From Tubulanus polymorphus (taxonomy: Eukaryota > Animalia > Nemertea), in the NCBI RefSeq assembly GCF_964204645.1, contig NC_134034.1:5988914-6052913 (forward strand): a DNA stretch of 64,000 nucleotides, given 5' to 3'. Numbering within the stretch: the first letter of the stretch is position 1; every line of letters begins with the position of its first letter. The notes under the pieces are model-generated. The model saw nothing but the letters and a program-made list of their open reading frames with translations. It did no database searches and had not been told where the DNA came from. This document shows positions 2,899 to 34,035 of this stretch, one piece after another. The position numbers and the translations under genes are program-made.

Positions 2899-2958
2899 AG
2901 TAATTGGAAGATGTGGGTTTCATACCAGAGGGCGAGAGGGCGAGACACCACTCATCAC
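2899..2958 (+). repeat. P1 left terminal inverted repeat
   Basis: Exact reverse complement of 19950-20009. Confidence 0.95.
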
Positions 2959-2984
2959 CACAAGTATTTTTTTTTTCCTAATAA

Positions 2985-5900
2985 ATGGGAGAGAATGAAC
3001 ACCAGCCAGAAAACAATAATGTTAATAAAAATCAATATTATTGCCAATATTGTAAAAAATACATCGATACATCTCATAAACACGACATGAAAAAACTGCA
3101 AATCATATAAAAATGTAATAGATTTTGAAACTCCAGAAAATTCCAATGAAAGAAAAGAAAGATTAAAAAATATGAATGTGGATGAAATAAAATGTGAAGT
3201 TTGTAATGATTTTATAGTAAAAAGGAATTATAATAGACATCTCGAATCACAAAAACACCACCAAAATTTGAGTAATAATGTTTTAGGAAAAGATTATTTT
3301 GACGATAAACCTCAAAAAGTAAAAAAACCAAATTCAAAAACTAAATCCATTTCAAAAAAACCTTACATGGAAAATGTTAGAAAGTTGATTCACTAGAAAT
3401 AAAAGATACAATTGAAATCTTAGAAACATTACGTAGTAAAATTGGTCCTGCAGCTATTATATTTAGATTTTTTAAAGGAACAACAATAGAAGATTATAGT
3501 AAATTTAATGAAATAATAGAAAAAATACTAGATTTGATAACAGATGTTGAATATCCAAAAATTAGTATCTCTGGGAAAGTAAGTTTTATAAAGTCAGAAG
3601 AAAAAATGAATTATAATATTCAAACACACTCTGAAGAAATAATTTCAAAAACACAAATAAAAGAGAAGTTAGAAAAAATATTTAATGAATTTAAACGTCA
3701 TATTGAAGAAAGATATTTTGAGGGTTCTGGCTTAACATTGAATGAAATTATATATTTAGATTTAAATGTTTATAATACAAAAAGAAATAAAACATCAAAA
3801 AGTAATAAAATGTTTAAAAATGCTTCAAACTTTACAACAGAAAAGGATATTAAAGCATCATCTTATATTAAATTACCATTTACAACAAAAGCAGTAATAA
3901 ATGTTCAAAATGAAGATAATAAATGTTTTCTATGGTCAATTATTAGTTGCTTACACCCAACAGAAGATATGACACATAATTTTAGAATAACAAATTACCG
4001 GAAATATGAAACATTATATAAAATTGATCAATATCCAGTAACTATAAAAATGATTCCTAAAATAGAAAAAGTTAATAATTTAAAAATAAATGTATTTGAA
4101 TTAATGCAATTACCAAAGACAAAAGGTGAAAATAGTAAAGATTATACATTGGAAGCTATATATTTAACAGAATATTATGATGATGAAAATGCTATAGATT
4201 TGTTATATTACAAAAAAGATGAAAATGAACATTATATGTGGTTAAAACAAATAGATTTATTCTTTTGAACAGAAAGTGATCATCATCGTAAAATTTATCT
4301 ATGTAGAAAATGTTTATCTAAATTTATGACTGAGAATACATTATTAAAACATAAAGAATTATGTGATAATAAAGATTTTTGTAAATTAATAATGCCAACA
4401 GAAAAAGATTATAAATTGAAATTTACTAATCATAAATTTAAGAACATTGTTCCATTTGTAATTTATGGGGATTTTGAATCGTTGAATAAAGAATTAACTG
4501 ATCAAGATAGAAAAGAAATATATAACAAAAAGCAATTATTAAAATCAATGGATAAAGGAAATGAATTAAATGAAGACACAACACAAGACCCACCAATTAC
4601 AAATACAATTAAAAAAGTTCATCAAAGAGCTGCTGCTAATGGAATTTATATGAAATCAAATTATCCTGAATTATATGAAAGTCAATATATTTCTTTTAGA
4701 GGTGAAAATGTAGTTAATAATTTTTGTGATAAAATGATTGAATTAGAAAGTGATTTTGCAAAATTATTAAACAAAAATAAAAGAATAGTTATGACAAAAG
4801 AAGATGAAATTGATTTTAATTATGCAACTCATTGTTGTTATTGTGAAAAACGTTTTTATTCATTTGATAAAAAAGTTAGAGATCATGATCATTTAAATTC
4901 AATATATCGTGGAGCTGCTCATGAAGATTGCAATTTACAAGCTAAGAAAGTTAATTTCGTACCAATATTATTTCATAATTTATCAGGCTATGATACCCAT
5001 CTATTTATAAAACAATTATCAAGGAAATTGGGTACAATAATCAAGAAATAGAAGAATATAATGCTATGAATGGTGTAAATGTAAGAAAATATGATTTTAA
5101 ACTATTAGCTAAAACATCTGAAAATTATATTTCATTTCAATTTGGTTGCATTAGATTTTTAGATTCTTATAGATTTCTAGCAAGTTCATTAGATAATTTA
5201 TCAAAAAGTTTAGTTGATAATGATTTTGTTATAACTCGATATTATTATCCAAATGAACAAGATTTTAAATTATTGAGATATAAAGGTGCAATTCCTTATT
5301 CATTTTATAAAACACACAATGATTTTAATGTAACAGAATTATTAAAATATCAATTTTATGATCAATTAAAAGAGGAGTATGTGAAAGACGAAGTGTTTAA
5401 TAGAACATTAAATATTTTGAACCATTTTAAGATGAAAAATCATGGTGAATTAGTTGATTTATATTTAAAATCAGATGTTATGATATTGGCTGACATATTT
5501 GAAAAATTTAGAGAAGTTAATTTAAATCATTTTAATGTTGATCCTTGTTATTGCTACTCTAGTCCTGGTTTAACCTGGCAATGTGGTTTAAAATATACAA
5601 ATGTAGAATTAGATTTATTAAAAGAACCAGATATGGTTTTATTATTTGAAAAATCAATTAGAGGTGGAATTAGTTGTGTTATGGGAGATAGATATTTTAA
5701 AGCAAATGATGAATATAAATTATTATATATTGACGCCAATAATTTATATGGTTGGGCAATGATGCAACCTCAACCATACAAAAATTTGATATTAACAGAA
5801 GTTGAAAATGATGATAAAACTAATTGGGAAAGCGCAATTATGAGTTTAGAAGATGAAGCACCAATTGGTTATTTCTTTGTAGTTGATTTAGAATATCCTG

Positions 5901-8045
5901 AAAATATAAAGTTTAAAACAAGAAACTTACCTTATTCCCCAGAAAATTTAACTGTAGATGATAGTTATTTTAGTGAATACCAGAAGAAAATAAAACCGAA
6001 AGATCATGTTTTTACAGAAAAATTAATACTTACTCAAAATAATAAATACAATTATATTGTTCATTATAGAATGTTAAAATTTTATCTAAAACAAGGAATG
6101 AAATTAAAGAAAGTACATAGATATATTGAATTTAATCAATCGAAGTGGTTAGAAAAATATATAGATTTCAATATTCAACAGAGAACCATATCAAAAACAG
6201 ATTTTGAAAAAGATTTCTTCAAATTAATGAATAATAGTTTTTATGGAAAAACATGTGAAAATATTAGAAATATAAATGATATTGAATTAGTAAATAATTC
6301 TGAAAGATTAAGACATTTACAATCAAGCCCTAGACATTTAGGAAATAAAAGATTTGAAGATTATTTAACAGCAGTTAAATTAAAAAGAACTTCAATGAAA
6401 TTTAATAAACCAATATTTATAGGTTCAACTGTTTTAGAAATATCAAAATTATTAATGTATGATTTTTATTATAATTTTTTACAACCACTTTTTGGGGAAA
6501 AGCATATTGAAATATTATATTTTGATTCTGTAACAGCTGACACCCCAATATTATTAAAATGTAATGATAAAATATTGATAAGAAGAATTTCAGAAATAAT
6601 TCCAAAACAAAATGAATGTTATATTTCATATGGTGAAAAAGAATTAATACAAATAAATGGTTTAATGGATGTTTGGACAAGAAATGGATGGAAAAAATTA
6701 AAGAATATTATTAGGCATAAAACAAATAAGAAAATCTATAGAGTTAGAACTAAATTAGGGTTCGTTGATGTTACAGAAGATCATAGTTTAATTAAACGAA
6801 ATGGCGATGAAATAAAACCAACTGATATAAAAATTGGAGATGAATTATTACATAAAAGATTTTTCCAAAGAATGAATCATATGTCATTTGATGAAATTAT
6901 TGATAATATTTATAATATAGAACCCGAAACATTAGAAGAAAAAGAATATTTTATCAAAGGATTTTTCATGGGTGATGGTTCAGCAGGTGTGGATAATTAT
7001 GTTTGGGGTAATAAATACTGTTGGTATTTATGCAATCAAGATTTAAAATTATTAGAAAGAATTAAGAAATTCTGTGAAGAAGTTTATTCACATAAAACAT
7101 TTAGAATCATGGATCATATGAAATCATTAGCAGTTTATAGAATACTTGTAAATAATCCTAAAGATTTTGCTATAAAATATAATGATGAATTCTATATTCA
7201 TGCAATAGTGAAAGTAATACTTCAACTAAAGAAAAGATAGTTCCAGATTATGTATAAATGCAAAAAATAATTTAAGAAAATGGTTCTTCATTGGATTCTA
7301 TGCAGCAGATCGTGCTAAAAAATTTACAAAGGATAAAAGATAACCTTTGCTCAAAAAGGAAAAGTTGCTATATCAGGATTGAATATATTATGCAATTCAT
7401 TAGGTTTTAATATGGATATTGGATTGATTAAATCTAAACCAAATTGCTTTAATCTAAGCCACACAGAAAAAGATTTAACTGAAGAAGTTAAAGATTTATT
7501 TGAAATATATAACCCATTAGATTATGTTTATGATTTATCAACTGAAGATGGTACATTTAACAGTGGATTTCCATTAATTTGCTTCAATACTGACGGTTAC
7601 ATACTAAAAATCAAGACAAATGATATAACAAAAGACTTAAAAACATTAAAACATTATTTTGATTTAAGCAATTATCCCAAAGATCATGAACTATTTAGCA
7701 ATGATAATAAAAAGATTCCTGGTAAGTTTAAAGATGAATTAGGGGGTGATGAAATGATTGAATTTGTTGGGATAAGAAGTAAAATGTATAGTTACAGAAC
7801 AAAAGATCATGAAGCTAAAAAGTTAAAAGGAATAACAAAACATGTGGTTGATAAACATATAGAATTTCAAGATTATATAAAGTGTTTATATAACTCAATT
7901 GTAATGAAACACAAAATGAATTGTTTAAGATCAGAAGATCACGAGATGTACATTAATGAAGTTGAAAAAAACTAGTTTGAATCCATTTGATGATAAAAGG
8001 CATATTTTAGATGATGGTATAAAAATATTACCTTATGGTTATTAA
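2985..8045 (+). pseudogene. polB: Protein-primed family B DNA polymerase (N-terminal zinc fingers, OTU-like region, EndoVII/HNH-like finger, exonuclease, polymerase), intein-containing, disrupted
   Basis: NEDNKCFLWSI, IYGDFES, RDHDHL..YRGAAH..CN, FHNLSGYD, FLDSYRF, YIDANNLYG, KLMNNSFYGK, YFD|intein|TDG; several stops and frameshifts. Confidence 0.95.
6527..7588 (+). mobile_element. Intein with LAGLIDADG homing endonuclease in PolB motif C (frameshifted)
   Basis: Block A SVTADTPILL, block B VTEDHSL, LAGLIDADG-like FIKGFFMGDG and WFFIGFYAAD, block F/G YVYDLSTEDGTF...ICFN|T; removal restores YFD-TD as in P2/P3. Confidence 0.95.
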
Positions 8046-9356
8046 AACATAAAATCAATATCATCATACTCGAAATTACTATTGGCTTCTTCATTTTCAT
8101 TTAATTGTTTAGGTTCTTCTTCCATTTCATTTTTCTTATTTAAATAAAGTTCTATCTTGTTCCACATTTCATCTCGCTCTCTTTGTTTCTTTTTGTTTGT
8201 TAATTCATCAAATGGAATTATAATATCTATGTTTAAATAATTTACAATCTTATTTAAAAAGAATTCATAATTTATTGAATCTGTTATTCTATTTTCCAAA
8301 TGATACATTAATATTTGTTTGAATATTTTTTTTATATTTTTCATATCTTCTTCTGTTAATTTAGGTTTTTCATAATAATCGTTAAATAATAAATATAAAT
8401 ACATTTTCTTTTCTTTTGTGTTAAATGTTGACGGAATAATTGTTTTTATAATATCTTTTTTAGTTATTTCACCATTTTTATTTTCTATTATTTTCATTTT
8501 TTCAAGCCATTGCATATATTCTGGTGTATGATCTTCTATAGAAAATGTTTTAAAAATTTCATCTAGATAATTTAATTTTGGATCTATGAGAAAATTTCTA
8601 GTTTTTTCTTCACTCCATAAATTCTTTTGCCATCCACATTCATTACAAAATAACACAGTACCTTCTTGCCTTAAGGTCGCGTAACTACATTGTGGACATT
8701 TTCGTTTATAATTTATTGGTAATAGATCTTCATTAAGCTCTTGGTATTTTCTTACGTTTTCTTTACGTTTTATTGTTCTATTATGTAGATTTGAATTACT
8801 TGTAATAATCAATTTACAATATTTACAATAATATATTTTTCTTGTTAATTAATTATATTGTTTTTCTAACTTTTCAACTGTTTCTTTATTATCTGGTAAC
8901 GTTTTCTCATATTTTATTTTTTCTAATAGATTATTTTTTCTTTCATTGAATTCAGTTTCAAATTTATTAGAAATTTTATCTATATGTGCTTTACGAAATT
9001 GATGATTCTCCCAATCTTCTATATTTTCAGGGCTATATTTTATTCGACAAGGCTCACAGAAATGATCTTTTATATTATCCTTATCATAGAATAAGAAAGG
9101 TCTTTTCCAAATAATTTCAGGTTCAACTTCAACAGAATTACTATTACTTTCATCACTATCAACATTAGCCGTTGCGCCATTAATTTTACACTTCTCTGAA
9201 TGTTTTTTAACATGATTTCTTGATAATTAATTTATTACATTTTGGGCAGTTTATTTTAGGGGGTTTATAATTTTCATCATGTTTTTTCATATGTCGAGCC
9301 ATATTACTTTTTCTTAGAAGTTTACCACAAATTTCGCATGCTATCTTCTCATCCAT
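8042..9356 (-). pseudogene. Zinc-finger / VLTF3-like (poxvirus A2-type late transcription factor) gene, 5' part frameshifted
   Basis: Start at 9356 MDEKIACEICGK..RHMKKH (C2H2); ORF 8042-8812 has CPQC..CNECG zinc ribbon, SINYEFFLNKIVNYL and KKQRERDEMWNKI resembling the VLTF3 C-terminus. Confidence 0.65.
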
Positions 9357-9423
9357 TTATTAAGGAAAAATTTTATCAAAATTAATTTTTAGTGATGAGC
9401 GGTAATTTTTTATGTTATAAATA

Positions 9424-10211
9424 ATGGTAGAATTAAAAGAATACAGAATATTTGTTGATTCTAGAAAACTTACAAATTATAAATCACATAATTTATTAGT
9501 TCAATTAGATAGAGAATTTAAGAATTATGTAGATTTAAAATTAGTAAATATAAGTTTATGTAACTCATTTTACAATATATCGGATAAAACTGACGAACAT
9601 AGAACCTTTTTTATTTATGAAAGACGTAATAGAAAAATAGCTTATCAACTTATGATTACACCAGGATTATATAATTTAGAAACATTAGCGAAAGAAATAA
9701 ATAGAAAACTCGGATTATGTTAGGTAGTGATTCTAAATTTAATATTAAATTCATAAAAAGTGAGAGCTCTAATTTTATTAGAGTAAAGTTTGATGATGAA
9801 AGTGTTGATGATTCATTGATGATAAGAAAACATGCTTACATGGTAAAAAAACCTTTTTCTAAACTGTTAGGAATTCTTTCAGATACTTTTATTTACGGAA
9901 ACACATATGGTATATCAAATATAATACCTTTTACACATTTTTATATTTATTGAAATTTAATTGATCCTACAAAAACATTCGAAGCAACTAAAGAAACAAT
10001 TTGTAATTCTAGTATATTAAATATTTTACCATTAAAAAATGTTAAACAATTTGGAACGCAAATAAATTATAATTTAGCTGAATGTGATTTTAAACCTTGT
10101 ATTCCACATTTCAATAATTTCAAATTAGAAATAAGAAATCATAATGGTTATTTAATTGATTTGAATAACTTTCCTGTAATTTATGAATTAATTATAAGAT
10201 GTAGAGAGTAA
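9424..10211 (+). pseudogene. Minor capsid (penton, single jelly-roll) protein, disrupted
   Basis: IFVDS, NSFYNIS, PGLYNLE.L...IN, LEIRNHNG.LIDLN motifs; intact homolog at 34053-34808. Confidence 0.75.
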
Positions 10212-10227
10212 TTTTTTCATTATATAA

Positions 10228-10587
10228 ATGAATATAACTGTTGGACCGAGTATATGTTTTGGGTTTGATTTTAAACATGAGAAAGAAATGAAATTTAACA
10301 TTAATGATGTAATTACACAAATCAAAAATATTGTATTTTCTAATGAAACATCATTTGAGTATGAAACAACAATAGATAAAGAAACTTTAAATGTAGAAAA
10401 GATTACTAATTTAATTAGAGAATCTTTAAGATTTTATGAATTAGATGAAGATTTTATCATAGATGATATTAAAAACATATTAACCGAAATATATGATAAT
10501 CATAAAAGTAGTAATGAAATAAATGTTGAATTATTCATCACTAAGTTGACTAAATATTTTGAAGATAGTAATTTTTTTGATAAATAA
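10228..10587 (+). CDS. Conserved acidic hypothetical Polinton protein
   Basis: 119-aa ORF, homologs at the same position in P2 and P3. Confidence 0.7.
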   Translation: MNITVGPSICFGFDFKHEKEMKFNINDVITQIKNIVFSNETSFEYETTIDKETLNVEKITNLIRESLRFYELDEDFIIDDIKNILTEIYDNHKSSNEINVELFITKLTKYFEDSNFFDK

Positions 10588-10809
10588 ATGAGTGATGATA
10601 AGTGGATAATAACTGGATTATATAATGGCTCATTATTATCAGTTGGAACTGTTGGTTATTCAATGGTATTAAAAAAAGTATTTAAAATGGGAAGTGTTAA
10701 TGTTGATAGATTTGATATAAATGATATCTTAAAATTAACATTAGCAGTTACTTTATCTAATTTAACTATTGATTATTTAGAAAAACAAAAATATATTCCT
10801 CCTATATAA
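10588..10809 (+). CDS. Small hydrophobic putative virion membrane protein
   Basis: 73 aa, two hydrophobic segments, conserved in P2/P3. Confidence 0.7.
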   Translation: MSDDKWIITGLYNGSLLSVGTVGYSMVLKKVFKMGSVNVDRFDINDILKLTLAVTLSNLTIDYLEKQKYIPPI

Positions 10810-10833
10810 ATGCGTAATTATTTTGCTAAATAA

Positions 10834-11256
10834 ATGGCTTCTGCAATTATAACTATTATAGGATCGGCAATTGTTAACGCTTTAGCATTTACTGGTGGTG
10901 GATATTTATTTAAACATATTGATAAAAATAGTTCATTAGGAGAACAAAGAAGACATAATTTAGCGTTAGAAAAATTAAATAAAGCAGAGGAAGAATATAG
11001 AGAAAAGAGACAAAACTATATGGATTATATTAACAAAGAATTATATGATCAGAATATTTCACACAGAGATTTTCAATCAGTTGATGATGCAATGAGTTTA
11101 TATAACGCGGTAACCAATAAAGAAAAATTACATCTATACAAACCTAAATTATCAGATTATTATACCCCAAGTAAAGAACAACAGAAATATGAAATAATTT
11201 GGATTTTAGGTGGAACAGTTATTGTTATATTTGTAGCATATAAATTTACTAATTAG
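10834..11256 (+). CDS. Putative membrane protein (N- and C-terminal hydrophobic helices, central coiled coil)
   Basis: MASAIITIIGSAIVNALAFTGG...RRHNLALEK...IIWILGGTVIVIFV; intact in all three elements. Confidence 0.8.
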   Translation: MASAIITIIGSAIVNALAFTGGGYLFKHIDKNSSLGEQRRHNLALEKLNKAEEEYREKRQNYMDYINKELYDQNISHRDFQSVDDAMSLYNAVTNKEKLHLYKPKLSDYYTPSKEQQKYEIIWILGGTVIVIFVAYKFTN

Positions 11257-11275
11257 TAATTTTTTTTCTAAATAA

Positions 11276-11710
11276 ATGGAAGATAAAGTTGATAATATTG
11301 ATATTATTCCTCATGATATGAATAAAACTAAATTAAAAATATATTTAGAAAAACAAATATTAGAATTTGAAAATGATTTAAAAGTTAAAAAGAAAAAATA
11401 TTTAAAAAGTAAAATTATATATTATTTGATTATTAGTGGTTCGGTTACAATAAGTTCTGTAATAACATTTCTAGCAATATTCAGTCCATTAACACCTTTA
11501 GCTATATCAATTGGTGTGTTAGGATTATCATCAAGTGTATTAACTGGTATAAGTTCAAAATTAAATATAAAAAGTAATAAAGAAAAAATTAAAACTAATA
11601 TAAAAGAAATTAATAAATTAAAGAATACACTAGATTATATAATAAGTTTAAATGGTCATATAACAGTTGAAGAACAAGATAAATTATTAAAAGAATTAAT
11701 AAATTATTAA
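11276..11710 (+). CDS. Two-TM membrane protein with coiled-coil flanks
   Basis: Hydrophobic hairpin IIYYLIISGSVTISSVITFLAIF...LAISIGVLGLSSSVL; homologs in P2/P3. Confidence 0.75.
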   Translation: MEDKVDNIDIIPHDMNKTKLKIYLEKQILEFENDLKVKKKKYLKSKIIYYLIISGSVTISSVITFLAIFSPLTPLAISIGVLGLSSSVLTGISSKLNIKSNKEKIKTNIKEINKLKNTLDYIISLNGHITVEEQDKLLKELINY

Positions 11711-11726
11711 TTTTTTAGTTATATAA

Positions 11727-13115
11727 ATGGCAGATAGTTTTCAAAAAGCTTTCCAATATAATAAATCAATTAAATATAATATTCCAGCAATAGATTTTAA
11801 TAAAGATATTTCATATAGAAATGAAGTTTTAAATTCATTAATTGATTTAGAAATTTATGTTACTGAAACTAATAATTTTAATGCAAAGATGGAAAATATA
11901 TTTCATGTATATTTAATTAATTTTAAAAAATTGAAAGATGAAAAACAATGGTTATTAAAATCTAATATGAAGTATTGGCAGAACCAATTAAATTTTGCTG
12001 TTTATTGTGCAATAACAGGTTGTGGAATTAGTTGTAATGATCATTTGAATAATTCTAAATATAAATTAATTCAAAGTTTATTTAGATTTTATACATACTT
12101 TCAAATCAGAATAATATTAAATGAATTAGAGTGCGCTTTACCAGGATCTAGATATTTTAAAGAATTAGATAATAATATTAATTTATCAAAGTTTTATAGA
12201 ATTTGTAATGAATTTAATATAGATATAAATAATTCTGATTTTAGAACAAAAATTGGAACAATAAGATCACTTCCTTGCCCTAAAAAGATTGCAGAATATT
12301 GTGCACTTCCCATACCATCTAATAGTTTTTATAATATCTATAGTAATAAATTAGGTTATGGTAAAATAGAAACTAAGGATTTAGAAACATTAAATTTCAA
12401 TAAATTACCGAAATTTTATGATAATTTAAAACAAGAAAACAATAATGGTTGGGTTTATTTCATTTAAGAAAATAATGAAGGTTTTACAAAATCAGGTATA
12501 CAAAGAATAAATCAATCTATTAGAACTTATTTGATATGTATTTTAGGTGCGCAAGTTGAAACAAGATCCCCAATGATTGGAAATTTAAATACATCATTCG
12601 ATACACAAAAACAATTTAAAGTATTATTTGAAGATTCAATTCATGATGATAAAAATAGATCGATTCCAGAAAACATTGTAAGCTATCAAAATTATTTAGA
12701 TAAATCACATATTAGATTAAATTATTGTATAGGTCCTAATCAATTAATTATTTCTAATGATTTAGTATTAAAGATGGGAAACATAATTGGTTAAAATAAT
12801 CTAATTAAAACTGCAACAATAAATAATTCATTTGGATTAAATGATATAAGTAAAAAGATTATTACTGCTCCAAAATTAATGGAAGGCGAAAAAAATAAAA
12901 AACATATTCAATCAACAGAAACTAAAACTAAGAATATTAAATTAAATAATGATTCTAAAATAAAAGATTACAATACATCAGAAGATATAAAAACTGATAA
13001 GATTCAACATGAAATAATTAAACTAAATGATGATAATAAATCCCATGAAAATACTAAATTAGCTTTAACTTGTATAGGAATTGTAATCGGAGGAATATTA
13101 TATTTTAAATTTTAA
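11727..13115 (+). pseudogene. Conserved Polinton protein of unknown function with C-terminal TM anchor, disrupted by stops
   Basis: WQNQLNFAVYCA.TGCGIS motif; three in-frame pieces; homologs at 36328-37653 and 60233-61675. Confidence 0.75.
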
Positions 13116-13131
13116 TTTTTTTATTATATAA

Positions 13132-14545
13132 ATGGATGTAGAAGGTGGAGAAGATATTGGAATGGATCCTTTTGATGAACCTGGTATAAGTGATGAACAA
13201 CCACCTGATTTTGATGAAACAAGTTTTAATGACGGTAATGAGCCAGAATATAGTAATAATTTGAATATGCCTGATTATATTAAAAATGCCGAATCACAAT
13301 TAAATCCTGAAAATTGAAACCCAGATTTAGTAAAACAAGATTTAGATAATTTAAACAAAATACCCAAATAAGAACGTATAATTGAAAATTCTAAACTTAA
13401 TATAAATGATGAAGACGTTGGACTTTTAGCATATCAATTAAAATTTTTAGATAATGGTAAATGTTATTATCGTTTGAAAGGTGATTATTATATTGATATC
13501 ACTTCTAAAAATAATAAAAAAATATTAGCGGAATCAACTTCGAAAAGTTTAAAACCAGATAAAATTAAAATAATAAGTAATAGTAATGAAATAACTGATG
13601 TTACACAAAAAGAAATAGATGATAATATAGACGCATTTAAACAAAGATATAATGAATTATTTGAAATAATCAAAAAGAAATCAGACACAGAAACAACTTC
13701 TGAACCGAATATAACTTCCAAAACTAGTAAACTTAAATCAAATAAAGTTCCAATTGAAAAACTTTTACCGAATGGATTACTTGATGCAACAGATCAAGAA
13801 TTAGAAGATTTAGATATATTTTCTGATAAAGCAATTAGAGAAATTATTAGTATAAGACATGCATCTGATAAAATTGCGCATGATAAAAGTATAAGAGATT
13901 TTAAAATTCGAACTTTAGAAAAAGACAGAACTGATAAAATTAAAGAAATAGAACAATTAAAATTAGATAGAGATAATAAAGTTATTGAAGAAATTGAATT
14001 TAAAAAAAGAAATGCATATTTAGAAAAAGAAATTGATGATATAGAATATAACATAGAATTACAAAAAGAATAATATTAGAATAATATTAATAGATTAAAA
14101 GTTATTTTTAAAGATTTGTTAATAAAACCAAATTCTGAAATATCATTAAAAGATAGAATAAAATCATTATTTAAATTAGAAGGAATAACAATTCTTTCAA
14201 TTCTAACAGCTGTAACTATGTTATTTACAACAATTGGTTTAGCAATATCAAATGCATTAAAATCTACGCCTACACCCAATAAACCGGATAAACCCCCGAA
14301 TGATAATAATTCTATACAAGATAAAGTTAAGGATGGTTTTAAAAAATTAGCAAAATATTTATGGGAACTATCTAAAAAATCTGCTGCAGCTTTACCAGGA
14401 GTAATTGCATCATTGTTGGTTTTATATTGAAATGCAGGAAACATTATTAACTTTGCTGCTGAACATATTATTTTATTTTTAATTACAGTTGTAAGTGCTA
14501 TTATTTTTGGGTTAGTGAATATGATATCAAAAGGATATCAAGAAA
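13132..14545 (+). pseudogene. Large acidic/coiled-coil protein with C-terminal hydrophobic helices, disrupted
   Basis: Colinear with intact 476-aa ORF 61638-63068; 3' end approximate. Confidence 0.75.
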
Positions 14546-14586
14546 AAAATAATAAAAAATGAATAATTAATTTTTTTGTTAAATAA

Positions 14587-15829
14587 ATGAGTGGGAGTTA
14601 TATAAGTCCTTCTAAGAATTCTAGAATATCTAATGCTATTAAAGCAGAAAGATCACCTCATATAATTACTCATAACCCTTCTAATATTAATCCTGATGAA
14701 ACTTTATATGTTAGAATCCCTAGATTAACACAAAATACTTTTTATGTTCCAAATAGTATTTATTTATCAGCCGATATAAATTGGTCATGATAATAATTAT
14801 GTTGTTGATAATGTTAGGAGATATTTGATTAAAAAATTAACTATAAAGATTGGTCCAGAAACAGTTTTCTCATTAGATGATTATAATTTATTTATGCATT
14901 ATAAAGATTTATGGTTAACTAAAGAAAATAGAAATAATATGATATTTCAGGGTATTCAATCGGAAAACCATAATAAATTAAGATCAGGAGCTAATGACGC
15001 AATAGTAACTCGTGCCGCAGATAATTTGATTAAAAAGATTTATGGAAGCAAATATAAAATTCCATTAGAGTTTGAATTGATAAATAATAATGCACCTTTA
15101 TATAAATATGTAATTCAAGAAGATATTATATTTGAGATAACATTTGCTCCTGTAAATGAAATTGTATTATCTAGCGTTGTTAAAGATATGGGTTATAAAT
15201 TATCGAATATATGTTTAGAATATGATACAGTAACTAATGAAAATATTGCTAGCACAATTCAAACTCAATACAATCAAGGATTTTCATTATTATATGATTA
15301 TATTGATAAATTTAAAACTGTAACTATTAATGCAAATGATGAAATAATTAATGAAAATATTAACTTCCCAAGAAGATCTATTAAAGGTATATTAATATTT
15401 TTTACCATTGCAACGTATTCTAATGGAGCAATAAAGGTAGATAATTATTATAATCCTGAAATAACAAAAGTTGAAATAACTATCGAAGGAATAGCAAATA
15501 AAATATTTTGTCAAGGAATGAGAATGATTGATCAGTGGCCAGAAATTAGAAAACATTTTATGAATGAAAAAGTAAAATCATTTGAAAATTGTAATATTAA
15601 TCAAATTGATTATTTTACCGGCAATAAATATGCATTATGGTTAGATTTTAGAACAACAGAGGATAATTCATTACATGGTTCTGGGAAAAAACTACAAAAT
15701 ACTAAAGATGGAATACAATTATTCATGACAAAGAAAAAAGGAAGCCTAAATTTCAAAATGCACACTTATATTATATCTGACGCGCAATTAAATATTGTAA
15801 ATTCACAATTAGATAGTATTCAATATTAG
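14587..15829 (+). pseudogene. Major capsid protein (double jelly-roll type), frameshifted near 14780-14820
   Basis: ~410 codons, beta-rich, position before integrase/ATPase, highly conserved in P0/P2/P3. Confidence 0.8.
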
Positions 15830-15859
15830 AAATATAAAGTTAAAATTAAGGATATATAA

Positions 15860-16987
15860 ATGGGTGGTAAAAAAACTCCTAATACTAAAGAACAATATTT
15901 AAGAAATTTATATTACAACCCTGAGAGTTCGGTTGCTTATTCTTCTACCAAAAATATATGGAGTAAAGTAAAACAAGATAAATTAGATAAGATAATCCCA
16001 CAAAATTTAGTTAAATATAAAGATATAAATGAATTTATGTTAGAACAACCAACATATACAACACATAAAAAAATTATTAGAAAATATAAAACTCGTAAAA
16101 CTATGGTAAGTTATATAGATCAACAGTGGCAAGGAGATTTAATTGATATGAAAAATGTTAAGAAAGATAATGATGATTATTGGTGGTTATTGAATATAAT
16201 TGATATTTTTAGTCGTTATGTATGGAGTTTCCCACTTTATAGAAAAGATGCTGTACAAACATCAAATGTTTTAAGAAAATTTCTTTCGGATGATAAACTA
16301 AAACCAGAAAAAATACAATTTGATGATGGAAAAGAATTTGATAATTCACTTGTTCATGAACTCTTAGATAATCATAATATTAAATATTTTTCAACAAAAT
16401 CGGATAAAAAAGCAGCAGTTGTTGAACGATTTAATAGAACATTAAGAACAAGTGTGTGGAAATATTTTACAGCAAATAATACTTTTAAATGGATTGATGT
16501 TTTACCAAAATTGATAGAAGGATATAATAATTCTTATCATTCTTCTATTGGAATGAAACCTATCGATGCTAGAAAACCTGAAAATGCTGAAATTGTTTGG
16601 AATAATTTATATGGAGCATTTCTTGTAGATGATTTTGGTGAACCTATATTTAAAGTTGGTCAAAATGTTAGAATTTCTAAGTATAAAAAGATATTTGACA
16701 AAGGATACGATCGAAATTTTACTAGGGAAATATATAAAATAAAAAAGGTAATAACAACAAAACCATATGTCTATAAATTAGAAGATTTAGATGGTGAAGA
16801 AGTTGATGGCTACTTTTACGAAGAAGAATTAAGTTTAACTACTGAAAATCTAGAACAAGAATATAAAATTGAAAAAGTATTAAAAACAAAAACTATTAAA
16901 AGAAAAAAATATTCTTTAGTAAAATGGGTTGGATGGCCAGATAAATTTAATGAATGGATATTATCAAGTAAAATTAAAAATATATAA
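15860..16987 (+). CDS. Retroviral-like (rve) DDE integrase with C-terminal chromodomain
   Basis: QWQGDLIDM, IDIFSRY, QFDDGKEF, VERFNRTL, YNNSYHSSIGMKP; chromo YKIEKVL...LVKWVGWPDKFNEWI; intact ORF. Confidence 0.95.
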   Translation: MGGKKTPNTKEQYLRNLYYNPESSVAYSSTKNIWSKVKQDKLDKIIPQNLVKYKDINEFMLEQPTYTTHKKIIRKYKTRKTMVSYIDQQWQGDLIDMKNVKKDNDDYWWLLNIIDIFSRYVWSFPLYRKDAVQTSNVLRKFLSDDKLKPEKIQFDDGKEFDNSLVHELLDNHNIKYFSTKSDKKAAVVERFNRTLRTSVWKYFTANNTFKWIDVLPKLIEGYNNSYHSSIGMKPIDARKPENAEIVWNNLYGAFLVDDFGEPIFKVGQNVRISKYKKIFDKGYDRNFTREIYKIKKVITTKPYVYKLEDLDGEEVDGYFYEEELSLTTENLEQEYKIEKVLKTKTIKRKKYSLVKWVGWPDKFNEWILSSKIKNI

Positions 16988-17596
16988 ATGAATAAAGAAT
17001 TATTTATATTTGAGCCTCATAATATGTTAATTTCTGGCGTAACAAATTGTGGAAAAACTTATTTTATATTAAATTTATTAGAAACTGTTTATGAAAACTA
17101 TTTTGATAATATAGTATTATTTTGTCCAACATATGAATTTAATCAAACTTATGATAGAAATATTACTAAAAATAATAAATTTATTATATTAGATCCTAAA
17201 ACAGTAAAAGAAAATTTAGATATTTGTATAAAAATAGCAATTGATATTTATAAAGGATCAAATACATTATTTATCATAGATGATTGCGCAAATTTACATG
17301 ATTCAAAAGTTAGAGAAAGTGAGTTATGCTATTTAGCTTTTTCTGGTAGACATTTTGGGATAACAACTTGGGTTTTAAATCAAAAATATAATTCAATTGT
17401 TAAAGACTTTAGGGAGAATATAAGATTTCTAGTTTTATTCTACAATCAAGATAGAAAATCGATGAAAAATGCACTTGAGGAAAATGATATTATTCCACAT
17501 GATTTACATAATGAATATATGGATAAGTTGAAAAATATTAAAAGATCAAAATTACTGTTTAGATTACAACACCCATTTAAATATGAATTTATTTAA
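16988..17596 (+). CDS. A32/FtsK-like genome packaging ATPase
   Basis: Walker A GVTNCGKT, Walker B FIIDD, GRH and Q..R.N motifs; intact. Confidence 0.92.
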   Translation: MNKELFIFEPHNMLISGVTNCGKTYFILNLLETVYENYFDNIVLFCPTYEFNQTYDRNITKNNKFIILDPKTVKENLDICIKIAIDIYKGSNTLFIIDDCANLHDSKVRESELCYLAFSGRHFGITTWVLNQKYNSIVKDFRENIRFLVLFYNQDRKSMKNALEENDIIPHDLHNEYMDKLKNIKRSKLLFRLQHPFKYEFI

Positions 17597-17599
17597 ATT

Positions 17600-17868
17600 C
17601 AACTAGCTTGTTAATCTAGTTGAATTCTAGTTACATTCTAGTTGAATTCTAGTTATTGGTATTGGAACAAAAATCAACTAGATTTAACAATATTTTAACT
17701 AGCTTGTTAATCTAGTTTAATTCTAGTTACATTCTAGTTGAATTCTAGTTGTTAGTAGTTGGAACAAAAATCAACTAGATTTAACAAGAAATAAACAAAA
17801 ACAACAATATTTCAACTAGCTTGTTAATCTAGTTGAATTCTAGTTACATTCTAGTTGAATTCTAGTTG
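17600..17868. repeat. Three ~55-bp units of CTAG/GAATTC-rich non-coding repeat
   Basis: aactagcttgttaatctagttgaattctagttacattctagttgaattctagtt at ~17602, ~17697, ~17814. Confidence 0.85.
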
Positions 17869-17900
17869 CAACAACACAATTAATTTTTTTTGTTATATAA

Positions 17901-18488
17901 ATGGGAGGTGAAAAGAAAATAAAATCTAAAAATGGTGATGTTCCAATTGAAAAAACTTTAGATGATTTAGGAATAACAGAAAACAAATTAATTCCAGATG
18001 ATGGTGCTTTAAATAATGTTACAACAAATAATAATTATGAATATTATCTTTATTGTAAACATCAATTAGAAATATTAATAGCATCTGGAAAATGTAAAAA
18101 TTTTGTCGGTAAAAATTTAACTTATAATGAACTAGATTCAATGAAATCAGATGAAATTATTAGATTATTTAAGATTTATGAAGCCGCGAGAACAGCTAGA
18201 ATTAATGACGCGATATCAGAAAATGTAGTAAAAGGTTATAGTAAATTATGTAATTATACACTACCAATTGATGATGAAAATAGATTATATTCCGATTTAA
18301 AAAATGACTATTTAGTTATGACTGAATTAAATAAATGGATTGGATATTCATCATTTCAATTAGGCGGATTTATGACATTATTATCAACTGGGGTTATAAC
18401 ATTTTCAAATATTGAAAGTAAAAATATTTCTATAATAAATGAGCGAGGTGAAAGAAGTGAAGGAATTAACTGTGAAGAAAAAACCTAG
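17901..18488 (+). CDS. Conserved hypothetical Polinton protein (gene X)
   Basis: 195 aa; homolog at 41853-42455 in P2. Confidence 0.8.
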   Translation: MGGEKKIKSKNGDVPIEKTLDDLGITENKLIPDDGALNNVTTNNNYEYYLYCKHQLEILIASGKCKNFVGKNLTYNELDSMKSDEIIRLFKIYEAARTARINDAISENVVKGYSKLCNYTLPIDDENRLYSDLKNDYLVMTELNKWIGYSSFQLGGFMTLLSTGVITFSNIESKNISIINERGERSEGINCEEKT

Positions 18489-18773
18489 ATCACAGAAACA
18501 AATTGAATGGTCTCGGCAATTAGGAATTAAATCACAAGAATATAAAAAGCTGTAAAAGAAAAAATAAGTAATAAAAATGTTAATAAAAATAGTGAAAATA
18601 TTGTTATTTCTACTCCTTCTAATGATAGAATATTTGATAAATGTCTATATTTTACAGTTGGATTTGTAATTGTATTCATTTTGATTGGGTGTAATTGGTA
18701 TAAGAAATCAAATAAAATTCATGATATTAATAATTCTGAAACAACTGCTATCAAAAATGAAAATAATTCTTAA
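18439..18773 (+). pseudogene. Small basic protein with TM segment (gene Y), frameshifted
   Basis: TAAATG start; KKPRSQKQIEWSRQLG matches KKARSEKQIKWARELG in P2 (41860, minus). Confidence 0.6.
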
Positions 18774-18996
18774 ATTCCAAAATTGACAATAAAAAAATGG
18801 ATTAATATTTTAGAAAAAAAGGCAAAAAAAATAATTTTTTTTAATCAATTGAATATTAATTGAATATCTCACTACTTTTGTCTATCACTGTGTGGGTGCC
18901 GTTTATGGCACCATCTACGCGGAGCAATTAAATTGTCCAGATAAGTCATTTCGGATTCTAGATATTCATTATTTTTATTAATTTATTTTTTTAAAT

Positions 18997-19326
18997 TTAA
19001 TCAACAATTTCTAAATCATGATGTCCATCTTCATTTTTTCCATGATATAATATTATTTTAAATCCTTCTAAATCTTTTAATTCCTCTGTCCTCAATGAAA
19101 CCCATTTATCAGGTAAAAATACTTTAAATTCTCGCGATGTACTAACCTTACAGTAGCTTAAATTAGCTGATACTTTCTCTCCATATTTAGTTTTTATCTT
19201 TTCTAATTTCAATATTTTATGTTCAATTTCTTTTGTAACATCAACTAACTTTTTTATTTCAAATTGTTTTTTTGCTGGTTTTATTCTGTTATTTATTGTT
19301 GCTAAGAATGCTTTTCTATCTCCCAT
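18997..19326 (-). CDS. Small protein, possibly OB-fold ssDNA-binding
   Basis: KKL..., TKYGEKV, FKVFLPDK pattern shared with 57602-57943; fold is inference. Confidence 0.55.
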   Translation of the reverse strand: MGDRKAFLATINNRIKPAKKQFEIKKLVDVTKEIEHKILKLEKIKTKYGEKVSANLSYCKVSTSREFKVFLPDKWVSLRTEELKDLEGFKIILYHGKNEDGHHDLEIVD

Positions 19327-19348
19327 TTATTAGGAAAAAGAATTACTC

Positions 19349-19949
19349 GTGGTGATGAGCGGGGATTACTTCCCCTTGTATATAACAAACACCCTATTAA
19401 CCGTTGTCACCCAAGCCTCACAGCATCTATTTATCCGGGTACAGTTAACACACGCGCAGCTGTTGTTACGCGCACTCACTGTTTATGTGTGTCACAATTT
19501 TACTGCGTAATATTTCTAAAATTTCAATTGTATCTTTTATTTCTAGTGAATCAATATAATTTCTAACATTTTCCATGTAAGGTTTATTTGATTTATCAAT
19601 GTATTTTTTACAATATGGACAATGATATTGATTTTCATTAACATCAATTTGTTCTGTCTTATTCTCTTCCATTTATACGGAAACAAAATTATTTGTGGTG
19701 ATGAGTGGGGATTACTTCCCCTTGTATATAACAAGCACGCTATTAACCGTTCTCACCAAAGCCTCACAGCATCTATTTATCTGGGTACAGTTGACACGCA
19801 ATCACTGTACTACAGTAATAGCACACGCGTTAATAACCGTTCTCAGTAGAGACTCACTGTATCGGTCTATCCACGCGCAGCTGTTGTTACGCGCACTCAC
19901 TGTATATGTGTGTCACAGAGCAATCGTCCGTTCTCACTAGAGCCTAGCT
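19349..19949. repeat. Subterminal direct repeats enclosing a deleted inverted copy of the polB 5' end (ORF 19466-19672)
   Basis: ~19349-19497 repeats ~19695-19917; the ORF matches the P1 PolB N-terminus. Confidence 0.8.
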
Positions 19950-20009
19950 GTGATGAGTGGTGTCTCGCCCTCTCGCCCTCTGGTATGAAACCCACATCTT
20001 CCAATTACT
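19950..20009 (-). repeat. P1 right terminal inverted repeat
   Basis: Reverse complement of 2899-2958, followed by TSD TTTATT. Confidence 0.95.
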
Positions 20010-20334
20010 TTTATTTAATTTCAATTGTTCTAATTCTTCATTTGCTTCAGATAATTCTTTTTCTACAGTGATACTTTTAGAAAATCTCATCTTAATATGA
20101 GCAAATTCAAGTTTCAGTATTATCTAAAACACTAATTATCTCTTCTTCTAAATCGGCTATTTTTTCAATTTGTTTTTCTTATACTAATTGTCATTCACTT
20201 GAATCACTACTTATTTATTGAATAACTTATTTCGATGTTTTTGGTTTTGAAGATCTTAATTCATCTTATTTATCTGCAAACTCTTCCATTTCTGGATCAA
20301 CAAAAGTAGGATTTAGATTTGGATTTTTAAATGG
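20010..20334 (-). pseudogene. Old Polinton fragment P0, part 2: middle of coiled-coil gene
   Basis: Joins 2898 across the TSD to give EELEQLKLNKDLQVIDE, matching P2 EELKQLELNKNLQVIEE. Confidence 0.85.
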
Positions 20335-21147
<813 letters not shown>

Positions 21148-21469: not shown

Positions 21470-24400
21470 AGAATGGGAAACGTGCTCCCTACTCCAGTAA
21501 ATAAATCGAGATTAAATTATCGTAACAAACTGAACTCATGTACACTATTACTACAACATGTCGACAGCCCCCGGACTTATACCAAAGGCCGGAAAAGCTA
21601 ACCGCAAGGTCCCTAGTCGCCCGAGCCGGGAACGAAGGGAACTTGAGACGGCTCAACGGAAGGGCCGGACATGAGCCAGCGCTTCTCTTGAGCGAGGAGC
21701 ATGGGGCCCAACGCAGTCAAAGAACCCAACTCCCCCGACACATCACATAAGTAGAAGGACGCAAAGGTAGACGGGGAGGACCAAAAAGCTGCCCTACAAA
21801 CCTGGTCTAAAGAACCACCAGAGAAAACCGCCCACGAAGTGGCCATTGACCGAACCTGGTGAGACACTACTCTCGCGGAATCGGGCACCCCTTCTGGGTT
21901 GAGCGCCTCCTTGATGAGCAAGACTATCCAGCGGGCCACCTTGGCCCTGGAAATATCAGACTCCGACTTCTCCGAAAGGGGGAGAAAAAGTCTTTCTCTG
22001 GACTTACACCTGGGCTCGGTGCGGGACAGGAACATCCTCAAAGCCCTGACTTGGCACCAGGCCGAGTCCTGCAAGTCAACGGAAACTCCCTAACTCAGCG
22101 CCTCAATTCTCCACTCCCTGCCCGCAGAGGATGGCTTCTGGTTTTTCGCCGGGATCGACAATCCCGGGCGAGGCAAAACAAACTGGTCAAGGGGGCCAAA
22201 AACAATATGACCCGCCCGAGCCGACAAGGCATGAAGCTCCGACCTGCGCGCCGCCAAACACAGTAAAAACACGGTCTTCTTTGTCAGACGTGAAAACGAC
22301 AGAGAAGCTAAAGGCTCGTACGGAGCCGAAGTCAGATCCTTCAAAACGACCGTCAAATCCCATGGGAGAAGATCCTGGATCACCCTCGGACGAGAAATGG
22401 AAAATCACGCAATCAGCTGTGAAATACGAGGATCTGCCATGACTGACGGAAGGCACGCCGAGTGATGGGTATGGGAGATCGCCGACCCATAGCCTTTCAC
22501 TGTACAGACTTTAAAACCTTTATCCTTGAATAGAAAAAGGAAAAAATCGGCTACATCTGCTACAGAGGGTGAGTGAGGATCCACCTGTCTCTCACGGCAC
22601 CAATTACTGAAGAGTTCCCACTTGGAGTCGTTAACGAGACCTGTCGAGGGTCGTGTCGAAGCGACGATAGATGAGGCAACGTTTGCCGAAAAACCTTCAC
22701 TCTGGAGACTACGCTGGACAGCGGCCACGCGTGAAGTTTGAACCAATGAACAGAACTTACCTGTCCAACAGAACTTACCTGTACCGACCAAAAACTAGCG
22801 GAACGCTGTGTTCCACTGGTCAAGCCGAGAACTGCCGATTTGAGTTTCTCTATTCGGCTGTCCGCCGGCCGGACGATCCCTCGAACGAGATCGAAAAACA
22901 TTCCGAGATAAAGGAATTTCTCCGATGGGGCAAGCTGGGACTTTTCCCCATTTACGAGGAAACCTAATTCCCGATTCGGGGAACGAGATCGACATTCTCC
23001 CTCCGAATTGCCTACCACCAACCAATCGTCTAGGTATACAAAAAGACGAATACCTTTCCTTTGTAGCCTTTTCTGGACCCCCTTTACGACCTTGGTACAT
23101 ACCCAAGTGGCTGCACTCAGGCCGAAGGGGAGCGACGTGAACTGATAGTGGATGCCTTTCCACTTTACGCGGAGATACCGATGAGACTTCGGATGCACCG
23201 GCACTTGAAAATAAGTGTATTTCATTCGATAGAAGCAGCCCATTGCCTGGGTTTCATGCCTTGAATGACTTCTTTGGGGGTCATCATTTTGAATTTTGGG
23301 CAGTCGAGAAACTTGTTTAGGAAAGAGAGAGGTCTTATCACCGTCCGAAGACCGCCGGATGCCTTGGAACGGTGAAGATCCTGGAATACCAACCCCAAGA
23401 GGGATGATCCCGAACGCGACGCAGGGCTCCTTTATCGATTGGCTCCTGGATCGCCGGGATAATGTGCTGCTCCTGACCTTTCTTGGGTCGCATGTCCGGA
23501 GGGGACCTTCCCCAGGGAGGTTTCTTGCGAAACTGAAACCGGTTCCCGGCCGAGACGGTTCGTGTCAGCCAGGTATCGCCAATGAGCTCGTACCAGCGGA
23601 AAGCACAGCTTCTTAGGCATGCTCCCACTGGTACGGAGCCTTCATTGCGTTTGATTAGTCTGCCTCCGAAAGGGATTGACCTTTTTTGGACCTTTACCCT
23701 TAGCAGAGAACTTCCTGCCCGACTTCTGATTCGAAATTAAGGCATTAGAACCATTCGCAGACCAGCCGGCCTGCCGATACTGGGCCGAGCGGTTAGCACC
23801 GTCCTGTACTGCAACCAAAGCTGATTTCCCGGACGAAGACGCCGTAGGCTTGGCCGCGTCCTTTTTCTTAGGAATAAGCCATGGGGCCGTCTTATGCTGC
23901 GAATCCTTCAGCCTTTGAGCTTGTTGAGCTGTCGGCCAACACCAACCCGAAAACAAACGACTTGACAGCCCCAACAGGGCCCTATACAAGTTTTGTTTAA
24001 TCGCATCTGAGAGTTTGGCATCTTTTAACAAGAAGTGCCGAGCTATCAGGGCCAGATTAGCCTGTAACCTGAATGCCACTGGCACTTGATGGCAAATCGC
24101 TCTTGCTGATGACTGTAGGAGTCTGTCAATCGTAGTGACCCATCCGAAACCATATCCAAATCTGGCGCCGACGAAGCCAATAGGGATTTTATCGCGACCA
24201 GTTCCCCGTGCATCGCGAACAGAGCAATGTCTTGAAGGAACCGATTTGGCAAATGCTTTCGCTTAAGGACTGCATAGCCTCCATTGCCTGTTTAGGCGTG
24301 GCATACGTGCTAGGTTGAGCCGTGAAAATGCCCAACGTACCCAAATCCCACATCGGCATCGGCATCGATAGCCGTGGTTGGCTTAAATGACGAACCTGGA

Positions 24401-25400
24401 GTCGCATGATAGCTAGGCCGAATTCCGGTAATATGCGGCTCCGTACACGAAAGGAACTTTAGATCTTTGTTAACGGATTACAGAGGAGGCCAGGACCAGT
24501 CCTGGGATCCTGCTTGTAGTGCTTATAGCTCTTCGCTGAAGGCCAACACTTGCGCTTGAATGGCTAGTAATATGGAACTAACTTCGTCCGAAGGAGCCGA
24601 CCTGTGGCTGGAATGAGACTTCCTTCGGTGTCGCACCGGAGACCGGGAACGTGACCGATAGGTCGACGATACCGTCGACATTTATCTCCTGCGGTAGATC
24701 TCACTATCCCTGTTGCGCGCGAAACAGAGCTCCTATTCGGAGATCGAGAACGGTGTCACCTACCGCCGTGCTTATCCGTTTTCCTACGGCGCTCTCGTGG
24801 GCGACGCTCACTGTGCGCACTTAACGAGCGATCGGCTGTAGATCCTTTGCAGGGTGATACAGAGATCGAGTATTCACGTGCCTTGCGGACCTTGACCGGG
24901 GTCCGGGACCGGGTACTGGCACCTGAATGTAAACCAGTTCCTGACCAGGACCGTGTTTTTGACCGAGACCGGACCTTCGACCGGATGACCGGGTCCGTGA
25001 CCGGACCAGGGACCGAATTCTTTAATGCGACCGGGACCCGCAAATCTGACGTGAGCGGGCCGGTTGTCGCGATCGAGATCCCGTGGAGACCGAATCCGCC
25101 GGGACGAGGTGGGTTCGAAACCTGCGTGACCGGCCGATCAAGGGCAGGGGGAGCAGGAATACTCGGAGAGTTAGTAACCACTGACGTATTGTCAGCACTA
25201 CTAGTCGACTTCTCTTTCCGAGAAGCGTAGGAGCGAGACTTGGCGTTGGCCCCTTGGGGGCGGAAATACCACTGTCCGCCATAATCTGAAAAAAATACCA
25301 AACAACCTCTCCTTACGGAGGATATGTAATATTGGAGACAAGATATATTTGAAAATACACTCTTGAAAGAGAAGAATATATTATCTGTAGGATGAATATA
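21470..25400 (-). mobile_element. DIRS-type tyrosine-recombinase retrotransposon, degenerate and internally deleted
   Basis: GC-rich; RT (YFQVPV, LPFGLS, YLDDWL) 22800-23630; SAM-like/YR region 21613-22750 (PWDLTVVL, KTVFLL.LAARRSEL, HQVRSMATSWA, WSSPSTFASFY); gag-like remnants upstream; ends approximate. Confidence 0.9.
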
Positions 25401-33653: not shown

Positions 33654-33682
33654 TCAAATTTTAATAAAAATATGTTATTAAA

Positions 33683-34035
33683 ATGGAGAGTAAACAAGCG
33701 GAAGTGAGAACAACAAATCATTTCTAGATAGAATAAAAGATACTTCAAATATCAAATCAGTAGATTAAAAATTCAAAAAGTTAACAGAATTAACAATTCA
33801 TAAGAAATATTTAATTACAAATATTGAAACAATTACTAACAAATATGGAGATAAATTAGTTATACACTTAGAATATGAAGGATTAAAAGGAAATACATAT
33901 AAATTCAGAACATATTTACCAGATAGATTTCATAGATTATCAAGTGAAGATTTAGAAGAATTATGTTCTGGAGATTTCTATTTCGTAAACAAAGGTTAGA
34001 ATGAAAAAGGGCACCATGAAATAGATTTCGAATAA
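33683..34035 (+). pseudogene. Small putative ssDNA-binding protein, with stops
   Basis: Near-identical to 57602-57955. Confidence 0.6.

Follow-up and report, generated by a model that had tools for sequence, protein, structure and literature searches.

The stretch of DNA analysed here, hereafter the window, comprises 64,000 nucleotides of the nemertean Tubulanus polymorphus (assembly GCF_964204645.1, contig NC_134034.1, positions 5,988,914 to 6,052,913) and contains three related, AT-rich Polintons (P1, P2 and P3; AT near 77%) among remnants of long interspersed nuclear elements (LINEs). P1 has the features of a Polinton/Maverick, namely a protein-primed DNA polymerase B (pPolB, gene polB), an rve integrase, a packaging ATPase, terminal inverted repeats and a 6-bp target site duplication (Table 1). 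Tail-to-tail with polB lies an antisense gene whose product is, judged from its sequence, a homologue of the poxvirus late transcription factor A2/VLTF3. This gene runs from 9356 to 8042 and is broken into three pieces (9356-9213, 9226-8852 and 8848-8042), the first holding the start codon, the CEIC..HMKKH finger and CPKC, and the last the zinc ribbon, SINYEFFLNKI and KKQRERDEMWNKI. All three are collinear with a single intact open reading frame (ORF) of 697 residues, P0001 (23 of 42 residues identical in the first piece, 45% in the rest). As the initial annotation had recorded, the stop of the gene (8042-8044, -) overlaps that of the polB tail (8043-8045, +), the overlap being two bases. The frameshifted 5' zinc-finger part that it described was also found, with the frame change near 9227, but the fusion holds four fingers rather than two, and an in-frame stop at 8849-8851 had escaped mention.

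Raw reads of run X7, of which about 12 in 100 were sampled, cover the gene to a depth of roughly 190-310. At the in-frame stop the window sequence is contradicted by 253 of 255 reads, and at the frame change by 145 of 185, with 29 further reads ending loose there. Depth and differences together imply that the gene family is multi-copy and mostly free of the two breaks of the P1 copy. These breaks are either an assembly error or a private mutation, and the family frame is open in either case. The reads also depart from the alignment at 8017 and 9423, where they enter P2/P3-type sequence, which points to two Polinton subfamilies differing at the VLTF3 slot. Runs X5 and X6 yielded only small shares in short scattered pieces, uninformative on habitat.

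The ribbon and the C-terminal motifs that had been likened to poxvirus A2/VLTF3 are all present, and profile, pairwise, fold and language-model searches return VLTF3. In blastp the window ORF is identical to the VLTF3 of Amsacta entomopoxvirus (AmEPV) at 28 of 74 residues (38% over 74 residues), and in the Atlas language-model search residues 220-420 of P0002, an intact relative, score 0.95 to PF04947 clusters. A profile that included the VLTF3 P0005 matched 6 of 7988 candidates, three of them named entomopox VLTF3; as the presence of P0005 biases this result, Polinton-only profiles and a Polinton-only refold were made. The Polinton-only profile met an entomopox-type VLTF3 profile at an hhalign probability of 96.2 over 121 columns, and a second hhalign comparison with VLTF3 gave 95.4. 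The model of the window ORF (predicted local distance difference test score, pLDDT, 72.5), whose alignment contained one true VLTF3 row, drew poxvirus VLTF3 at places 1, 2 and 4 in Foldseek. The P0002 model, made from a Polinton-only alignment (pLDDT 60.5), gave 11 Foldseek matches at E<=0.001, six of which are named VLTF3. VIA-align placed cyclin-fold chains, TFIIB included, on model residues 85-243 (Z up to 6.7, a middling value for a helical domain; root-mean-square deviation 3.4, 92 aligned), with the human TFIIB core at Z 5.8, and a JAZ finger on residues 2-43 (Z 5.8, 42 aligned). Foldseek against pdb gave 0 matches at E<=0.001, and a sequence search for a solved VLTF3 structure found none. 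The predicted models are consistent with a ribbon followed by one cyclin repeat. The nearest sequences are of entomopoxvirus type, and the VLTF3 moiety of the Polinton is likely to be of pox origin.

Among 1.84 billion representatives, phmmer returned five matches, P0001, P0002 (446 residues), P0003, P0004 and P0005. The last (E 1.6e-4) is entomopox-like, carries an A2L ribbon and is the only one of the five that is Pfam-verified as VLTF3; residues 326-530 of P0001 align to its residues 5-189, which is nearly all of P0005. P0004 was dropped as a relative, being a generic zinc-ribbon repeat protein. Both P0001 and P0002 encode the four fingers, the ribbon and the helical domain in one frame, and the fusion proposed from the broken P1 copy is thereby confirmed in intact copies. 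The P0001 gene stands tail-to-tail with an intact, intein-free pPolB (locus L001), the same arrangement as in P1. Ribbon and whole helical domain are retained jointly across relatives that are 35-46% identical, and the fingers show a weak likeness (9-17 bits) to the N-terminal fingers of Polinton PolBs. P0003 and P0008, relatives of 281 residues, have the helical C-terminal domain and a different N-terminus. A word-seeded search for homologues of the window ORF matched 0 of 743 candidates; viral_contigs yielded no relative of the VLTF3-like gene, of the pPolB P0018, of P0003, or of capsid or polB, and phages, PHROGs and NCBIfam yielded none either.

P2 and P3 carry, as annotated, a different small gene in this slot, which lies on the sense strand, and P1 retains one as well, a homologue at 18997-19326 (31 of 104 residues identical, pairwise E 6e-14). 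Since P1 keeps this homologue, the VLTF3-like gene is an addition, and its reading as a functional replacement of the small gene was rejected. The slot-gene family is nearest to phi29-type single-stranded DNA-binding proteins (Atlas score 0.84, a lead only), and its nearest Atlas clusters are mostly arthropod. P1 is also a mosaic: its polymerase pieces (3220-8040) are 58-78% identical in amino acids to P2/P3 and 68-83% to L001, and its structural genes (9419-15863) are mostly 87-96% identical to P2/P3. Seemingly, polB and the VLTF3-like gene travel as a single module.

The late promoters of vaccinia virus, as described in the available parts of PMC11980589 and PMC5294985, span the initiation codon with TAAAT and a G and have, in the midst of other Ts, a conserved T as the tenth base upstream, and use of this promoter type is described for entomopoxviruses (PMC3061580). 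In sequence the gene starts of P1 match this pattern: TAAAT(G) overlaps the ATG, and position -10, within a T-run, is a T. TAA/ATG occurs at 14 of the 15 gene starts of P1 (52 of 675 for all ATGs of P1), a T stands ten bases upstream of TAAAT in all 14, and a T-run lies upstream in 12 of the 14, compared to 6 of 38 non-start TAAATG. In the structural block (9424-15829) a T-run and TAA/ATG precede six of the seven listed starts, with a variant at 9424. The motif also precedes both polB and the VLTF3-like gene, and no early class is evident; P0001 is preceded by the same element layout and P0002 by TAA/ATG. Avoidance of the early terminator T5NT gave no signal in P1. A splice-acceptor reading of the motif was ruled out, there being no AG before the ATG.

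As the 15 starts had been hand-listed after the motif was seen, a blind rule was applied that takes the first ATG of every ORF of at least 100 residues. Motif starts were then found at 8 of 15 ORFs in P1, 8 of 13 in P2, 6 of 10 in P3, 2 of 2 in L001 and 1 of 1 in L002; the misses in P1-P3 fall, in our reading, mostly on antisense frames or on inner pieces of broken genes. The same rule gave 32 of 575 in 91 viral control loci with the selecting match removed (5 of 113 in the subset with GC<=28%) and 0 of 26 in L004, which is the only conventional Polinton control and is GC-rich (54%). L004 is near-complete (pPolB, integrase, protease, ATPase and capsid) and lies on a contig filed in a bacterial metagenome-assembled genome; it is probably misbinned eukaryotic DNA. 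A second start class, with an upstream A-run, was observed at 29637, 53532, 57602, 40690, 44750, 15860 and 16988. The polB start of P2/P3 reads TAAA/ATG and resembles vaccinia intermediate promoters; the structural genes belong to the T-run class.

The polymerase gene of P1 further contains an intein with a LAGLIDADG remnant, which is absent from P2, P3 and L001; the VLTF3 module of L001 is thus independent of it. An intein search matched 124 of 417 candidates. Among the 120 matches listed, two are pPolBs (P0018 and P0020), both with the intein intact, most others are RNA-primed PolB or topoisomerase II, and 77 show the GD^S insertion context of RNA-primed PolB at the same motif. The matches to RNA-primed PolB and topoisomerase II may be of large-DNA-virus type, though none is named as such. 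Intein homing requires shared compartments, and the P1 intein is therefore consistent with contact between the Polinton and large DNA viruses. The available text of PMC11071308 remarks that inteins may be the source of homing-endonuclease insertions in polinton pPolB.

The simplest joint account of factor, motif and intein is a virophage-like life, each functional step of which we infer. With a poxvirus-like virus co-infecting the cell, the VLTF3-like, predicted TFIIB-type four-finger factor would guide that virus's RNA polymerase to the promoters of the Polinton itself, a proposal for which we consider the case evenly balanced. The motif would be a promoter with transcription initiating within TAAAT. 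RNA polymerase and late factors would be supplied by the helper in a cytoplasmic factory, because P1 has no detected polymerase subunit and a factor gene behind the same motif cannot start itself. Ribbon and cyclin repeat would attach to the helper polymerase in the way supposed for A2, and the added fingers would contact nucleic acid and give the complex a preference for Polinton DNA. The Polinton genes, including polB and the factor, would await the helper's post-replicative machinery, to which the P1 subfamily would add its own A2-like adaptor; P2/P3-type elements would use the helper's own factor, or P1-type copies in trans. Precedents for such a life are described: virophages use helper promoters (bioRxiv 2022.07.28.501842), and polinton-like viruses (PLVs) have been found in entomopoxvirus occlusion bodies (PMC11296320). 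The initial annotation had suggested that the gene could redirect or compete for the late transcription machinery of a helper; two features that it did not cite, the element-wide promoter-like motif and the shared intein, raise the likelihood of a helper whose late transcription is of poxvirus type.

Several points weigh against this helper-dependent reading, besides the late hand-listing of starts, the single GC-rich control and the middling Z value given above. The P1 copy of the gene is a dead pseudogene. Helper dependence and a transcription start within TAAAT are both read from features of the sequence. Pfam PF04947 left the window ORF, P0001, P0002 and P0003 without a match at a threshold as loose as E<=5, and PF08792 did not score the ribbon. 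In the Foldseek ranking of the P0002 model the VLTF3 of the algal Tetraselmis virus came first and that of cowpox fourth, and with such mixed ranks the pox affinity rests on sequence scores and not on a tree. P1-P3 are homologous and thus not independent witnesses of the motif. P2 and P3 show the motif yet lack the VLTF3-like gene, which makes the factor optional. Finally, VLTF3 is kept by viruses that replicate in the nucleus and have no RNA polymerase (PMC11253617, bioRxiv 2026.08.29.747986, in their available text).

The last point favours the alternative that survives best, a helper-free nuclear switch, in which the factor would recruit host RNA polymerase II, with the host TATA-binding protein, to the Polinton's own TAAAT-type promoters, and P1-type copies would serve P2/P3 in trans. 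This same mode has been inferred for the mriyaviruses and ariadnaviruses that retain VLTF3 without RNA polymerase (PMC11253617, bioRxiv 2026.08.29.747986), the predicted fold is TFIIB-like, and possession of an integrase and insertion in a chromosome imply a phase in the nucleus. However, neither VLTF2 nor another late-factor partner was recognised in P1, in what is a weak test, the factor gene and polB stand behind the same motif without an evident early class, and a start inside TAAAT would give the transcript no templated leader, a poxvirus trait (PMC5294985). We consider a nuclear switch unlikely.

Also unlikely, and ranked below it, is that the fusion acts as a competitor or decoy. With the same helper dependence, it would attach itself to late factors or polymerase of the helper and throttle the helper's late genes, to the benefit of the Polinton and perhaps with protection for the host. 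The use of the motif in P2/P3, where the factor is dispensable, would agree with this, as would the strong divergence from pox VLTF3 with four fingers added, and a start of post-replicative type would let the factor appear during helper late transcription. Against it, ribbon and helical domain have been kept together among the diverged relatives, as in a working factor, and a general block would silence the identical promoters of the Polinton too. The least probable alternative, that the motif is no promoter (reflecting AT-rich compaction, stop-start coupling, a poly(A) signal or translation context) and the gene a passenger or in another nucleic-acid-binding role, can point to the high AT content, to a TAA that is the stop of the previous gene in 2 of 14 starts, to AATAAA in 7 of 14 (the remainder mostly TATAAA) and to fingers only weakly like those of Polinton PolBs, but leaves the fixed spacing with T at -10 in 14 of 14, the motif ahead of first genes without an upstream neighbour, the 4-6% frequency in AT-rich viral controls, the missing AG acceptor before the ATG and the poor translation context given by T at -3 unexplained.

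The remaining features of P1 and its surroundings are collected in Table 1. The capsid labels come from Pfam matches under the cut-off (Capsid_N, E 0.01; DUF5901, E 3e-4), and profile scans of the P1 proteins recognised no cysteine protease. P1 is nested in a fragmentary older member of its own Polinton family (2064-2898 and 20010-20936), and a long (TA)n run lies to its right (20966-21145). A direct repeat (19319-19451 and 19665-19797) consists of part of the terminal sequence with a T-run and TAA/ATG start and precedes two inward genes, one of them a fragment resembling the polB N-terminus. In the right arm of P2 (40690-45228), which has minus-strand orientation, the integrase is truncated and an ATPase match is missing; an endonuclease VII-like gene stands there behind TAA/ATG (44094-44750, -; phrog_1035, E 1.5e-13). 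At the left end of P3 (53300-53450) an internal inverted copy of the terminal sequence lies about 150 bases in. LINE-type reverse transcriptase remnants occupy 21600-25300 and 46400-52300 between the Polintons.

Table 1. Coordinates of Polinton P1, its VLTF3-like gene and related features in the window.
Feature	Positions	Strand	Remarks
Polinton P1, complete integrated copy	2899..20009	.	6-bp target duplication TTTATT
Left terminal inverted repeat, 60 bp	2899..2958	+	perfect match to right
Right terminal inverted repeat	19950..20009	-	matches left perfectly
Protein-primed PolB gene	2985..8045	+	broken, several frames; tail-to-tail with VLTF3-like gene
Intein in PolB motif C (YFD^...^TD)	6527..7588	+	broken copy; TIGR01445 31.6 bits, cut-off 24.5
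Zinc-finger-fused VLTF3-like gene	8042..9356	-	pseudogenised copy; frame change near 9227, in-frame stop 8849-8851
Helical VLTF3 domain	8120..8596	-	predicted single cyclin/TFIIB-type repeat
C4 zinc ribbon, opens VLTF3 moiety	8636..8698	-	CPQC..CNEC
Finger 4 (U1/JAZ-like)	8760..8827	-	Pfam zf-U1 E 2.4e-5; degenerate here, finger pattern unmatched
Finger 3	8984..9058	-	long-spaced C2H2; JAZ/matrin-like in P0002
Finger 2 (CPKC...)	9190..9248, end approximate	-	cut by frame change; whole in P0001 and P0002
Finger 1 (C2H2; CEIC..HMKKH)	9279..9338	-	Pfam zf-C2H2 E 7e-5, under cut-off; pattern
Promoter-like element of VLTF3-like gene	9354..9375	-	A-run, T-run with T at -10, TAA/ATG
Structural block	9424..15829	+	from putative minor (DUF5901-like) to putative major capsid gene (14587-15829)
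rve integrase and A32-like ATPase genes	15860..17596	+	TAA/ATG starts, A-rich upstream
P1 homologue of P2/P3 slot gene	18997..19326	-	possible single-stranded DNA-binding protein
P3 slot gene, 113 residues	57602..57943	+	P2 copy near 33603-33999 broken

Compared to known systems, the P1 product shares with poxvirus A2/VLTF3 (PF04947 and PF08792; entomopox AmEPV, CrEPV and MySEV, P0014-P0016) a zinc ribbon followed by a helical domain and a predicted fold match, in addition to the identity to AmEPV VLTF3 given above. In contrast to poxvirus VLTF3, it has four N-terminal zinc fingers, lies below Pfam detection and is encoded in a 17-kb integrating element in which neither an RNA polymerase nor a further late factor was recognised. 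VLTF3 had been presented in the initial annotation as a Nucleocytoviricota core gene; the family identity stands, but VLTF3 had already been reported outside that group, in polintoviruses of stony corals (PMC11131425, crediting Krupovic and Koonin 2016) and in PLV/MELD viruses (PMC8502044; bioRxiv 2026.06.19.733378). There, as in P1, it is a patchy accessory gene, read as gained from large DNA viruses, and the available text of these accounts describes no finger fusion, promoter analysis or pox-type assignment. VLTF3 in Polintons is thus known, and what is new is the pox-late-type starts across P1. The PLVs associated with entomopoxviruses resemble P1 in being Polinton-class, proposed poxvirus hyperparasites with mosaic replication and virion modules, and unlike P1 are described without rve integrase or pPolB (PMC11296320, in part); a term search of the main text of that paper gave zero occurrences of 'promoter', 'VLTF', 'transcription factor' and 'intein'. 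Sputnik, Mavirus and the PLV Gezel-14T have their genes behind a helper promoter motif (bioRxiv 2022.07.28.501842), as P1 would; their helpers are mimiviruses in protists, the motif is another, and their dependence is described as experimentally shown. Mriyaviruses and ariadnaviruses share with P1 small genomes and a VLTF3 without RNA polymerase, and differ in keeping VLTF2, in lacking pPolB and rve and in being Nucleocytoviricota thought to replicate in the nucleus (PMC11253617; bioRxiv 2026.08.29.747986, as far as available). In the literature covered, which left out most subscription papers, no account was found of Mavericks with pox-type promoters, of VLTF3 fused to fingers or of a complete intein in a Polinton.

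Animal Polintons may be self-sufficient nuclear viruses or may parasitise larger viruses. The promoter signature described here names a candidate helper class and allows a screen across all Polintons, and the finger-fused VLTF3 offers a natural probe of A2 function. With a diverged, finger-fused form that escapes Pfam, VLTF3 also loses value as a diagnostic marker for Nucleocytoviricota. Tentatively, a lineage of high-copy canonical Mavericks in this animal genome may be endogenous virophages of poxvirus-like viruses, with all genes on post-replicative promoters of the helper, in one subfamily a captured late factor of the helper, remodelled with four fingers, that would commandeer its polymerase, and an intein that would record the shared factory.

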